A stretch of DNA of 62,486 nt, the filler included, from Hausera hauseri (Eukaryota): NCBI GenBank assembly GCA_046269625.1. It is 12 parts of 12 records of this genome, joined end to end, with 100 filler letters (N's around TTAATTAATTAA, not from the genome) between each part and the next. Parts side by side here need not be neighbours in the genome. Positions count along the whole stretch, not along the records: positions 23,095 to 28,382 come from JBJURY010289725.1; 11 more parts are not named here. The stretch is one strand, 5' to 3'. The notes under the pieces are model-generated. The model ran no database searches. It had not been told where the DNA came from and saw only the letters and a list, made by a program, of their open reading frames with translations. Positions 23,095 through 29,774 of this stretch are shown here, piece after piece. Both the position numbers and the translations under genes were made by a program. Position 1 is the first letter of the stretch. Every line of letters starts with the position of its first letter.

Positions 23095-26000
23095 TTCATC
23101 ACTAGTATAACATGAATTGCTAGTTGTTTCATAGCTTGACACAACCAAATCGATGGATCCCGTAGACATATTTGATCCATCTGAGCTGACAACTGAAATG
23201 AGACCAACAATTGAGGGATTTATCCAAATTTTATTTGATTCGCCATTAGTTCCAATCCAATAGATTATACCCTTTTTATCAAAATCGTTAGTATACTTAA
23301 ATTCCAATTTTTCATGAGTTGTCTCTGCACACAGTTTGAAAAAGTGATACGTACTTCTTGGATAATCAAACCATTGTTTTAGAGTCTTTTCCAATATGTA
23401 TTTTTCCAATTGTTCAACTGTCACAAGAGGTTTAACTTTCATCGTTTTATCAGTTCGGTCATAAAGTGCATCTTCGTCGGCACCCTTCAGTAATGTCAGC
23501 TTAAAGGGACGTGATAATAGTTGTCCATTGGTCGAAATAACAGCTGGTGAGATACCAAGACTGTTATTTGTACCAGATCCAATGTTGTTGTAACAAAATA
23601 TCGGGAAACGTTCTAAATGTTCCAATGATTGGATGCATTTCTTTACCAAATTAGCTCCCGTCAAATTAAAACATTTCTTGAATACATTAACACGGCGTTC
23701 TAAATGGATACAAGAGAAACAATTTGTTTTGCATTGCGAATAACCTAGACTGATGAGCAGTGAAGACAGAACATTACTCACGATTAACTCATACGCAGTA
23801 ATGTTCATTTCATCCAAAAGTAACTCGCTAAGTTTATTGAAACAATCTTCGATGTCAATAAGATTGTCGTCTTGATGAGCTTTTAACAACCGATCCGACA
23901 AACTTCGTAAGTTTCCAAGATTTTCATTCAATTCTAATTCTTTTTCTGGTGTCAATTCACGATTTTTGGAACCAACCGACGGTGCTTGTCGGACCAACTT
24001 TTCATACACAATCTGCGCTAATTGGTGGATTTTACTACGAATAAATTCCGAATGAGACTTCATTTTTTTGAAAACTTGCTTTGTGTGCCAGAATGGTGTA
24101 TCCGATTTATGCTCTACGTGCTCCAGCAATTCTCCACTTGAATATTGACATGATACACTTTTAGCTTCTTCGGCACTTACCATTTGAGATATTTTCTTCG
24201 TTAGTTTAATCCCTCTACTGTAATCACCAAGGATTAAATATTCGGACAAAAGAGAATTTGATGCATCATCATTAGTCACAGTAATAACAAGAATGTCATT
24301 CTCAGCAGTGTGACTAAACAAAATACCTTTGAATATACGACTAGTACTCCGATTAGATATGGAAAACAAATTCTTGGACACACTTTTTGACTGAATATTT
24401 AAAAGTTCAGTGGAGAACACTTTAAACAGATCTTCCCGAGATGATTTATCTAAATTTCCAAAGAAACTATTTGGTTTGTTTTGAACGGCAATTGATAGCT
24501 TTAATTCATTATTTTTCAATGATTCAGAAGATAAATCGGTTTCGATCAAGGCTTTAGAATTGAATAAGAACACGGAATTATTTGTGAAGAAACTGCTCCA
24601 TTCACGCCAATAGTACTGATTATATATAATGAGATTGTCTGCAATTGGCATCACTGACATTTGGAAATCGATGAAACACTGGCCTTCGGCCTGCAAGTTC
24701 CTGAACGGTGCCAAAGTGTTCTCTATAACAGCATGAATTCTCGGAACGACACCCAATCTGGCGAACGGTTTCATATACTTTTCCGAACATTTACTCAGAA
24801 ATTCTTTACTCATTTCCAATGCAAGTAACATTTTCCTCGTCGCTATCGGTAAGAATAGAGAACACCACTTGTGTGATGCAATACGAAAATAGAACGTGAT
24901 TTAATCTCATGTCGGAAATTTTATCTAGCAAACTCTTATTCGTATACTGGCCCATCTTTTTTAATAGAGACAATGAATTACGTTTGACATTGCTATTCAG
25001 TGTCTCTTTGAAATTATTCAGAATAACTTGCATTAACTTTTCAAGAAAGATCATTTGAATTTCGGGATCTAACAGTTCTTCGGAATTTTTCGACTCTGTT
25101 TCTTCGAACGCAGATTGGTAACATTCTGCAACAGAAAGTATCTGTATAACTTCTTGGTGATTGCTATCATTAGCTTTCTCTCGAGCTTTGTCAATCGGTG
25201 GTTTACCTTCTTCGTCTTGCAAATGCGGATTAGCGTTGTATCGAAGCAGCACTTTAACAATATCTGGTTTACCAAAACAGGCTGCATAATGCAAAGATGA
25301 TGAACGAACACTTTTATCGACATCTGCACCACGTGCACAAAGATACTCTACCATTTCAGTCGTTCCAAAGACACAAGCCCAATTTAAAGGAGATTGTCCC
25401 ATTTCATCGCTGCAATCAATATGGAAGTTTCCATTTTCGAAAGTGTCAATAAAAACGTTTGTATCTTTGCTTCGGATTGCTTCAACAAGACTTCTTAAAG
25501 CCAAATCTTTCTTCCAAGCCGACGATGATATCGGGGAAATATCAATTGTTTTCGATGACTGCAATTTATCCGACAGTTGTTTGCTCGAATCGGACAATTT
25601 CGAATCAGAATTGTCCTCAGTTCGTTGTTCAACTAAAGTCTCCTTTCTATCCTTGACCGACAAAGCCCGGTGGCCTTGAAACAGCAACATCAAAAACGTA
25701 TCAATCAATCGCGGCAACACATCGCCAATCATTAAATCGGGCTGGGTAGAAATCATATCGGCTAACGTCGATGCTAAATCTTCCGAAATCAAAAACCAGC
25801 ACATCAGTTGTTTAAAACCCCGACAAAACGCCAAAATTAGATTGCTGAGACTCTCAACTTGACTACTGTTATTTTGTAAACCATTTGTTGAATCGCGTTG
25901 ATTGTTGACTTTCTTTACGTATTCTATCAATTCACCGGCGTATATCTCCGAACCAGTTTTGCAAGAATGTAGCAAAATTTCTGAAGGTTTTCTGATAGTA

Positions 26001-27466
26001 ATTTGTTCTTCATTCTTGCAGATTACGTTTGTAGATTGTGAGACTGTGTCATTGTTTGATGAGACATTTGCAAAAAGGATTTTTATAACATCCAATGCCA
26101 TATAATTGACGTCACATTCATGTGCCAACCCTTCAGTTAATTTCTCATAATTCTTCACGTTTTGAAGAACCATCGATAGCAGTTCAAAATTGTTACCAAT
26201 TTCACTAAATAAGTCCATTATCAGCCACAATGTGAACAAAACTTTTCGATGTTTAAGTCGAATTTCTGATTTCGTTTTGTTATTTATTTCATTTTGTAAC
26301 TGAAATATGTCCGACTGGATTACGTCCCATTCACCGTTTTGGAGTTTTTGTTTGAACACATCCAATTTTGCTTGTTCTGATTTGCTATCGAATTCCGCCC
26401 TTAAGACATTTTTACTAATCGTAACAATATTTTCAAATTCGTTTATGCACTCGACGACTTTCGTTACATAATATTCACATTTTACAGTTAAACGTAACAA
26501 ATCTAATTCGTCCATGTCAAGAATTTTTTGATTTTTGTCTTGTACATGCAACCACAATCGTTTGTCAAATGGACATGGAGTTGAACCGTCATTCAGAAAA
26601 TTGAAACAACGTTTGCATAGAGCATGTTTACACGGATTTAGTATGACATAATCGACAGTTTGATAAGATTCAAAACAAATTCCACATTCGGTTTGATTGT
26701 AGTACATAATTTGTCTGTTTTGGATAATGTTGACTCCAACAGCTTTCTGCAAACGATTGACTAACTGGCTCAGTAATTCATCACTGGCAACTTTCGTTGG
26801 ATCATGGCCTTGTCGATTGAATCTTTCAACTAAGTTGGAAAAGTATTTTAATGTTAAATCGCTGATTGACGAATTTTTATGTTCGAGAAAACGACTTAAA
26901 CACTTCACCCAACCGGTTAAATCGATATCTGTGGCCGATGCCTTGCTGCATAACTTCGTTGTAGACTCCATCGCAGATGAAATTATGTCACCGTGCAATT
27001 TTCTACTGTAATTATAAACAAAATTTAGTATATATGTCAATTCACCGAGTTCATAAACTAACGATGATTCTCTGTTGCAAATTGTCTGTAATAATTTAAT
27101 AATCTGCTGTCCTAATTCATTGCTTTTCTCGTCCTTCATTTCAACGACGTCCAATCGTGCTGCTATTGCTTTTACGGCACCAGGAGCTTGAACAACTCTC
27201 CGAGCACATTCATTTGATAAATCCAAATAATACGTTATTGCTCGAGCATCAGCTTTTAATACCAAATCCGGGGCAGTCTCATCAAGAAATATTTTACATA
27301 ATGCCGGTAAAAATGTTAACGGTTGATATCGTTCGAAAAACGTATCAACATTGTCCGAAAAAAGTACGTCATTACAAAGTTGTTCTAAAGCCATTAGTTG
27401 AATTTCTCGTGACTCACTACCGTCCATTTGTAACCATTCTAACACTGTTACTGGATCAGCTTCCAT
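23095..27466 (-). CDS. HECTD1: HECTD1-like E3 ubiquitin ligase, N-terminal half, with RING insertion and one frameshift
   Basis: MEADPVTVLEWLQM..IQLMALEQLC..FLPALCKIFLDETAPD N-terminus; ankyrin repeats (GQSPLNWACVFGT, SSSLHYAACFG); LYDRTDKTMKVKPL..KQWFD..DFDKKGIIYWIGTN. Frameshift near 24830; no introns seen. The HECT domain would lie beyond the contig end. Confidence 0.93.
26564..26686 (-). other. RING finger (C3HC3D type) inside the HECTD1 frame
   Basis: CGIC-x14-CKH-x2-CKRC-x10-CPFD. Confidence 0.88.
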
Positions 27467-29774
27467 CTGCAACGGTAAATAGGCAATAAAAATTATGACT
27501 TTCAGAAATAAGTTTTTTAAAAATTTAAATTTATTGAACAATATTCGAAAATAATGAACGCAGTTAAACAATCAAATTATTCATAAATGCGGAATTAACT
27601 GTGGCACATAAAATGATCATTCGGTACTTCTCATTACTAATGTCATATATAACATGTATATTATTCAGAGTTATCAGCAAAAAACGGATCTAGTGTCGGC
27701 TATTTACACTGATATACTATTTTTTGCTGATCACCAAATTTTCGGGAACCGATTCTGTGAAGACGGATAGTCCTGTGAAATATATTCTGCCTGGTTCTTT
27801 TCAATCTAAAAGTAAAACAAATCACTTATATACAGAGTTGCAATGGTACTCTAACACTTGGATTGAGAATTCTTATTCGATATTGGTGATTTAGAATTTT
27901 AAATTTATTTTCTGTTATAGCAGTAAATTATATTATCTTAAATAATTCAACAATGAGATTGTAAGCCTTTGTCGTTTCTCATTAGTCGATGCAAATTTGT
28001 AGGATCGCAGTACTTCATGCACACAGTACTTTTTATTGTGTTCCAAATTACTTTTAGGCACATGCACTTATGAAGTATACCACAATTTATCTGTGTATGC
28101 ATGCATAGATAATTTTGAATTTTTGTCTACATTTTCAGTTGCGAATTCTGAACCATATTGGACACTTAAAATAAAACCGTGCTTTATCTATTTATCATAA
28201 AGGCCATCTTTAACGTTATTTTGTAAAATTTCAGAAAATATTACTAAAATAATAGTATAAGTAAGAGAACTAGAAGATTTCATATCAATTTATACTTCGA
28301 ATATATAATTGACATTATTCAAACAAATTATCATATTTTCTAACTTCCCTCTCCCGCCGTTTTGTTGTTTAACGTCACTCTTNNNNNNNNNNNNNNNNNN
28401 NNNNNNNNNNNNNNNNNNNNNNNNNNTTAATTAATTAANNNNNNNNNNNNNNNNNNNNNNNNNNNNNNNNNNNNNNNNNNNNTATTGTCTGATTATAGTA
28501 TTATTTGACCTGTTTTACAACATTTACAATCTGAATTATTTGATGCCATATTTAATGCATATTTTATAATTAAAGTGTTGGGAGTCGTTGTATTATGGTT
28601 GCAATGGGTTGGGTTTTCAAATTTTTATTATTATTTTATTTTTATTATTTGCGAACGAATGAAATTTAAAAAAAATTAAGACGCTAACCCGTACCAGCCA
28701 TTATACCATTTTTAATGCCGGAAATTGTATTAACGTAAAAAATTTCGGATTAATACCATGTAAAAAAGGGAGTTTTTCGAATATTAAAACAACAAAATAA
28801 AAATAAAAGTATGTCGGGTGAATCAGACTATCATGCACTAACCCTTCACAACTTCGTTATTTTGATGTTCTACGCCGTTTCGAAGAATTTTGAGAATAAG
28901 ACATTTTCCAAATTTGAAAAAATATTCTTTTTTATTTTGAATGTACAAATTTATTAAATAATTCGGGTTCAGTGATACTGAAAAATTTACATCAATCTCT
29001 GTTACTTCCCATCTTAAATTATTTGTAAAATAATACTAAATCCTAACGGAAACTGTACAAAAATATATTCAATGAAAATTAATTGCCTTTTACTATTTGT
29101 TTATTCACAGGCGTTTATTCCGTCATTGTATACATCGACTTTCTGACTTAAATAATTTATTCTTGTTTGATGATCTTCGAGGCAAATTTGACATTTGATG
29201 TATCCGGCATTTTTACTACGATTTAATTGAAATGTACAAGATTCATCATGATATCCACAATATTTTAGATTAAATTCCAAATTAGAAAGTAATTCTTTCT
29301 AAAGTTATGTTGTTGAGATATGTTTGACATCAGATCGATAATTGGTGATGAGCATTAAGATATTGTGGTAATGAAATCGTGATAATGACACATGTTAATC
29401 CCCTTCCATAAAAGTCCAGAAATTTTACGGAACCGAAATTTTACGGAACCGATAAATTCAGTGGGTATTTTTATGTGCTCAACATGCTTTAGTTGGGCTT
29501 GTATTGTCATTCATTACTTCCAACTTCAATCCAGGCTTTTCAACGACGATTATAAAACAAACGGTAAAAATGAAAAGATAAAATAATTGGTAACCTGCTA
29601 AACAATCAAATAAGAATATTGATTTTATTTGACACTGATATGTTCTGTTCGGTTGCCAAACAAACACAGGCCAAAAGGTAAAAAGGCAGGACGAAAACCG
29701 TGCCGGCCTAGCTGCACCGAACTGTGACCCGATTGCCAAAAATAGAGGGCCATGTCCTAAACCGTGGCACTATA

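Follow-up and report, generated by a model that had tools for sequence, protein, structure and literature searches.

The locus described here raises the question of whether a HECTD1 gene has acquired a second catalytic module, an earlier note on this DNA having read it as a RING/HECT hybrid E3 ligase. The window (the whole stretch of DNA that was analysed, 62,486 nucleotides from the Hausera hauseri assembly GCA_046269625.1) is composed of several small N-spaced contigs, one of which, the 5,288-bp contig JBJURY010289725.1 (23095-28382), carries the RING-bearing HECTD1 copy. Comparison of this copy with its paralogous fragments and homologues indicates that it is probably a decaying HECTD1 locus which took up a 3'-truncated piece of a RING gene, and not a working hybrid ligase. 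The features on which this reading rests are the following.

27467..27496, minus strand: splice-acceptor-like pyrimidine tract ending in CAG, directly 5' of the HECTD1 ATG (from the sequence)
26736..27466, minus strand: N-terminal armadillo-type region of HECTD1, aa 1-244, intronless (50% over 241 aa against oyster HECTD1)
26728..26735, minus strand: left copy of the 8-bp direct repeat AGTCAACA, resembling a target-site duplication
25903..26727, minus strand: in-frame insert of 825 bp (275 codons), made up of a leader of 20 nt, a RING-family gene truncated at its 3' end (about 266 codons) and the right repeat copy
26564..26686, minus strand: RING finger with a C3HC3D ligand pattern, the eighth ligand being Asp as in most of the RING-plus-helical family
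25911..26563, minus strand: helical module of the RING family, ending at about two-thirds of donor length
25903..25910, minus strand: right copy of the 8-bp direct repeat AGTCAACA
24832..25902, minus strand: remainder of the HECTD1 linker, helical repeat and ankyrin repeats, in the frame shared with the insert (homology, Pfam)
24829..24831, minus strand: 2-bp deletion in an AT repeat, a frameshift private to the RING-bearing copy (from paralogous fragments)
24806..24808, minus strand: TAA ending the RING-bearing frame, 886 aa from the ATG at 27466
23095..24826, minus strand: HECTD1 middle region in another frame, with no stop before the contig ends where the SUN-like region starts (homology)

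The minus-strand frame is open from the ATG at 27466 to the TAA stop at 24806 (886 aa), and both armadillo-type and ankyrin homology to HECTD1 are present in it. The armadillo-type region, the ankyrin repeats (42% over 271 aa, with a Pfam Ank_2 match at about 25214-25426) and the middle region (26% over 592 columns to oyster residues 600-1142) align with oyster HECTD1 in order, while a Pfam search of the middle region (23095..24826) returned no match. The pyrimidine tract at 27467..27496 may represent the end of a 5' UTR intron. Except for a short repeat, the DNA upstream of the ATG occurs once in the assembly, and the only other near copy of the 5' region is in L002 (203 bp at 92%). The contig end itself (28260-28345) consists of a very high-copy short repeat, with a summed depth of >40,000 in the public sequencing run X1, which was also observed beside a RING family member (L008). 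Compared with the HECTD1/Ufd4-like HECT E3 family (available portion of Grau-Bove et al. 2013, PMC3673628), the locus differs in being intronless over 4.4 kb, in its divergence, in its RING insert and in a frameshift ahead of the SUN, MIB-HERC2 and HECT domains. The RING pattern was found in none of the 120 HECTD1 homologues listed of 1,228 matches, in agreement with the statement of the earlier note that canonical HECTD1 carries no RING at this linker, and no RING-bearing HECTD1 was found in the titles and opening parts of abstracts that were searched.

The RING finger scored above the cut-off against Pfam zf-RING_2 (E 6.8e-7; 29.9 bits, cut-off 27.3), with all eight zinc ligands (C8-C11-C26-H28-C31-C34-C45-D48, numbered from the ATG at 26707) retained in RING spacing. 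Thus, a RING finger does lie in the HECTD1 frame as the earlier note had proposed, and the ATG at 26707, which it had assigned to the RING gene itself, aligns with the start codon of related genes. These constitute an intronless family of the RING-plus-helical type, in which the insert has 34 other matches in the assembly (22-45% identity), and the 20 best of these 34 contain no stop inside the match. Members start with Met, which precedes the first Cys by a few residues, and have the C3HC3D RING in common; seven closed members are 325-525 aa in length and a few are shorter, compared with about 266 codons in the insert. Since similarity to one member (L007) extends to residue 273 of 278, the insert is, as read from these alignments, a family gene cut at about two-thirds of its length, comprising the 5' two-thirds. 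The donor gene envisaged by the earlier note was not recovered, as a DNA search of the assembly yielded no near-identical copy, the best relatives being those at 22-45%. In a tree of 11 family rows (three rows of <190 aa omitted), the insert had no supported sister.

C3HC3D denotes the RING pattern of the Roquin-1 and TRAF6 type. The family resembles these two proteins in having a RING with Asp as its last ligand, with PDB profile matches (E 0.001-0.002) confined to the RING, and differs from them in its helical module, for which neither a sequence nor a Foldseek match was obtained. The predicted model of L007 (pLDDT 81, pTM 0.83) consists of a RING followed by long helices, and a Foldseek search with this model gave no match at E 0.001 in the PDB or viral libraries, RING-sized matches excepted. 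Searches with residues 240-600 against proteins of 487-1551 aa (3,293 candidates) and with the family alignment against proteins of 70-765 aa (3,467 candidates) were also without a match, although such word-seeded searches missed even other RING proteins and so are no proof that the family is unique. A viral origin of the insert was considered and is unsupported: the best atlas likeness (0.92, to a giant-virus RING cluster) was accompanied by low recognition and 149 shared features, and that of the helical part reached 0.77 at best, both being leads only. A mixed alignment for folding the whole chimera was dropped, as HECTD1 residues were forced into the insert. Loci L007-L025 represent an expanded intronless family of C3HC3D RING and all-helical proteins, with a confident model and nothing matched beyond the RING, and are possibly lineage-specific E3 ligases.

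The boundaries of the insert were defined by the two copies of AGTCAACA, for which the chance of a flanking 8-bp repeat is about 3e-4 with nine offsets allowed. The approximately 285 stop-free codons between QKAVG and NNSSQ reported by the earlier note were counted as 287, of which 275 belong to the insert and 12 to the native HECTD1 linker; the insertion point is the start of this variable linker. The site was examined in X1, possibly the source run of the assembly, and in X2, a run from another study, so that only X2, and only for the right junction, is independent of the assembly. A RING-less version is seen in X1 contigs, one with 96% likeness to the locus, which join 25902 to 26728 by an exact 825-bp skip with eight letters fitting both sides; DNA with the empty site is therefore present, and the behaviour of the repeat is that of a target-site duplication. 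A separately assembled 891-bp X1 contig contains the filled site; it has no differences and reaches beyond the left repeat by 34 bases and beyond the right by 24, and an X2 contig extends 45 bases beyond the right repeat with three differences in 241 bp. Contigs thus bridge both junctions in X1 and the right junction in X2. In X1, contig depth was 14.1 for the insert, 13 for the 5' exon, 5-7 for the unique ends and 7.6 for the empty site, a hint that two versions carry the insert, one of them partial; this hint was not relied on, as depth does not equal copy number.

An assembly chimera, with the insert joined on at the 8-bp repeat, could be proposed on the grounds that the assembly mixes several animals and that X1 may be its source run. 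However, this is extremely unlikely in view of the 891-bp X1 contig and the X2 contig, by which the misassembly that the earlier note had allowed for is largely refuted, and of the third-position GC content of the insert (GC3, 0.33), which is close to that of the host frame (0.34) and unlike that of conserved foreign exons (0.36-0.89). It is also very unlikely that splicing removes the insert as an intron, with ordinary HECTD1 as the product of the locus. The repeat does contain GT and AG, six formal in-frame GT/GC-AG pairs lie near the ends, and short GT-AG introns occur in this organism (44 bp in L116); yet GT..AG is obtained in no register of the exact 825-bp skip, pyrimidines make up only 3-6 of 14 bases at the candidate acceptors, and the frameshift would remain.

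This frameshift, which together with the 8-bp repeat at both ends of the insert had been missed by the earlier note, lies at 24829-31. The two deleted bases are present in all four paralogous fragments spanning the position (L028, L029, L030 and L032), and HECTD1 homology switches frame near 24830 without an alignment gap. In X1, the two bases are present at depth 71/116, and no deleted version was displayed in X1 contigs, so the deletion is confirmed by the assembly only. Private substitutions about 30 bp to either side (24860 and 24799) make an assembler mosaic at this site unlikely. The RING-bearing frame ends at approximately residue 596 of the 2,380-residue oyster protein, about 360 codons past the insert, and the stop at 24806 precedes the SUN, MIB-HERC2 and HECT domains; the contig itself ends at 23095, also before the HECT domain, which, as the earlier note had stated, would lie beyond it. 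The predicted product, if translated, would be an 886-aa ARM-RING-helical-ankyrin protein without a HECT domain. Of the earlier interpretation, the RING gene with its own ATG, in frame in the HECTD1 linker, therefore stands; the hybrid E3 is not supported, as the frame stops short of SUN, MIB and HECT, the captured gene is 3'-truncated and the changes in the copy are neutral-like (see below). This applies to the allele as assembled, and an allele free of the frameshift may exist. Rescue of the frame by a cryptic intron was rejected, as all 21 formal GT-AG pairs cut HECTD1 coding sequence and none has a clear consensus.

No contig in the assembly was found to continue the gene into an intact SUN-MIB or HECT region, and an intact HECT half of this HECTD1 type was not found in assembly searches that included 30 of 93 Pfam HECT matches. 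The SUN-MIB locus L039 has five stops in the matched frame, the HECT N-lobe locus L094 has four, the C-lobe locus L053 has a broken end, and L115, in which a HECTD1 fragment is fused to what we take to be ATP-citrate lyase, is likewise a broken fragment. L116, with about 75 open codons and a 44-bp GT-AG intron, looks like an intron-bearing genomic HECT piece. This intron and a further donor of L116, taken as two introns, are absent from L094, which ends at a donor-like site and looks like a partly processed copy.

Selection on the RING-bearing copy was assessed from its private changes relative to the majority codons of paralogous fragments. Over 426 codons, 40 nonsynonymous and 19 synonymous changes were counted (13 and 6, respectively, by hand where at least three copies overlap), with the caveat that sites covered by two related fragments only may be wrongly polarised. 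The nonsynonymous fraction (0.68) is close to the neutral value obtained by simulation with the observed transition bias (0.70), and an omega of 0.3 or less was rejected (P 2e-5 for the 426-codon set; 0.014 for the set with at least three copies). Strong purifying selection as in HECTD1 was thus not detected on these 426 codons, a set that leaves aa 68-244 and most of the middle region outside the test. Among columns invariant in 23 HECTD1 homologues, the RING-bearing copy lost six that L028, a fragment containing stops, kept, and L028 lost four that the RING-bearing copy kept. The neutral-like changes, which lie in the ankyrin and middle parts, and the lost invariant residues are indicative of relaxed selection on the RING-bearing copy. 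Nonsense codons were absent from its 1,179 HECTD1-derived codons, an outcome with a simulated neutral chance of 0.3 at 1% divergence, 0.06 at 2%, 0.015 at 3.3% and 0.003 at 4.6%, the divergence rate being taken from the 426 codons only.

A decaying locus is the probable reading of these data, but several observations argue against it. The absence of nonsense codons is one, though the HECTD1 fragments also contain few stops (six over about 1,400 codons); others are that the insert keeps its eight zinc ligands and 275 open codons, that aa 1-67 lost none of 35 invariant residues where L002 lost four, that X1 contigs did not show the deleted version of the frameshift site, and that no near-identical donor was found, which is odd for a recent insertion. 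Moreover, this is the only long copy of its HECTD1 type that was found and may be the species' own gene. Some of the same evidence would suit a working 886-aa protein, in which the front half of HECTD1 lost its HECT domain and gained a RING, so that the scaffold recruits an E2 directly. In its favour are the 886 open codons behind an acceptor-like upstream intron end, the intact RING ligands, the placement of the insert in a variable linker without a nonsense codon, and the presence of the right junction in a second study; however, the changes in the ankyrin part fit neutrality and strike invariant residues, the last helices of the donor are missing, and the frame past the frameshift is equally stop-free, meaning that openness is not confined to the proposed product. 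We therefore regard a working truncated protein as unlikely. A true RING-plus-HECT protein, with the frameshift belonging to one allele or to an assembly mosaic and another allele holding the insert in full-length HECTD1, appears quite improbable. It is favoured by X1 contigs over the 5' exon that differ from the assembled contig at three sites (including Gly at aa 142, indicative of a second version), by the two frames being otherwise open, by the open stretch of about 75 codons in L116 and by the extreme fragmentation of the assembly (909,086 contigs), and it is opposed by the position of the deletion among private alleles, by the neutral-like decay in the same stretch, by the lack of a contig continuing into intact SUN-MIB or HECT and by the absence of the RING pattern from the 120 homologues listed. 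The broader claim, i.e. that the only HECTD1 locus of this animal has switched catalytic class (a RING on the ARM/ankyrin scaffold with HECT cut off) or possesses a frameshift-free allele with both RING and HECT, is doubtful.

No other long HECTD1 copy of this type was found in assembly searches with the 5' region, the insert region, the middle region and the upstream DNA, and an intact full-length HECTD1 of this type was not recovered from the assembly. The locus may represent the species' own HECTD1 in decay; alternatively, it may be a duplicate, with its parent absent from the fragmented assembly. At aa 142, the X1 contig encodes Gly, as does oyster HECTD1, and the assembled contig encodes Glu, so that a second version exists. 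The assembly (869 Mb) is very fragmented and contains at least seven distinct animal COX1 types, indicative of mixed organisms (loci L103-L113, where two bacterial-like pieces were also noted; several of these loci are on contigs of at least 14 kb). In one COX1 type, we find AAA to be best read as Asn, as in the flatworm/echinoderm code. Conserved, intron-bounded HECTD1 exons (51-91% identity to oyster) also occur in the assembly, and we take them to be DNA of other animals. Assignment of the 5,288-bp contig to the main organism of the assembly is tentative.

As for how the insert arose, the RING-gene piece would have entered at a staggered DNA break with duplication of 8 bp, and this would probably have been a side effect of the retroelement or repair processes by which HECTD1 pieces were scattered through the genome. 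Eleven HECTD1 fragments at 83-99% identity are present, several of them joined to unrelated coding sequence, which indicates that gene pieces move often in this assembly. Relaxed selection already acting on the copy may explain why the insert was tolerated, and the fit of the insert to the frame would be due to chance or to weak selection for an open frame. As the coding regions of the family are intronless, they do not discriminate between an RNA and a DNA template.

DNA elements of the hAT or Pack type produce an 8-bp duplication, but the terminal inverted repeats of such elements were not seen in the first and last 30-40 bases of the insert, inspected by eye, and the insert has no poly(A). 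Among retrocopies, both LTR-mediated and L1-type events and their chimeras have been described (available portion of Tan et al. 2016, PMC5131818). The insert is like those described there in being a partial, 3'-truncated gene piece without poly(A), found in multi-gene chimeras that are often in frame when young, and the other HECTD1 fragments of the assembly resemble such retrocopy chimeras as that text presents them. LTR flanks are lacking: both flanks of the insert are HECTD1, and the far flanks lie off the contig. A perfect target-site duplication, listed as an L1 hallmark in the same text (PMC5131818), is present (8 bp, with an empty site), whereas poly(A) and 5' truncation are not, as the insert starts 20 nt before the ATG and ends within the coding region. 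On these sequence features, it matches neither the LTR nor the L1 pattern fully.

Pairing of a RING-like finger with HECT in one polypeptide is not without precedent, since G2E3 combines RING/PHD-like fingers, which are active, with a HECT domain described as non-functional (in the portion of PMC3673628 available). G2E3 is an old conserved gene of another HECT class, whereas here the RING is an insert, and the assembled allele does not combine finger and HECT in the G2E3 manner. RBR ligases are composed of RING1-IBR-RING2, with the catalytic cysteine in RING2. The term 'RING/HECT hybrid' usually refers to these ligases (as used in the available portion of PMC3305615), to which the locus is comparable only by name and in having a RING: it has a single RING and no IBR match (E 0.1), and so lacks the triad.

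As most likely read, the locus represents a clean case of domain shuffling in frame, in which the filled site, the empty site and the duplication can all be seen, in an apparently dying gene, and it cautions against the assumption that in-frame chimeras in this genome are functional. Were its product expressed and conserved, it would instead be a HECT ligase scaffold rewired to a RING; were the class swap or a dual RING/HECT allele true, a single insertion would have provided an E3 ligase with a second or different catalytic module, in a natural case of recent date. Two side leads emerge, namely the uncharacterised RING-plus-helical family and a possible lineage-specific loss of HECTD1, the latter tempered by the fragmentation of the assembly. 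HECTD1 pieces of 42-1,000 bp were observed joined, often in frame, to unrelated coding sequence (L028:215-2431, L038, L002, L034 and L115), with an open frame of 739 aa in L028 and one of 914 aa in L038, where the partner is presumably a dynein heavy chain. Finally, the assembly contains another HECTD1-like N-terminal type, which is more divergent (28-37% to oyster) and is represented by fragments only (L003 and L004/L041).
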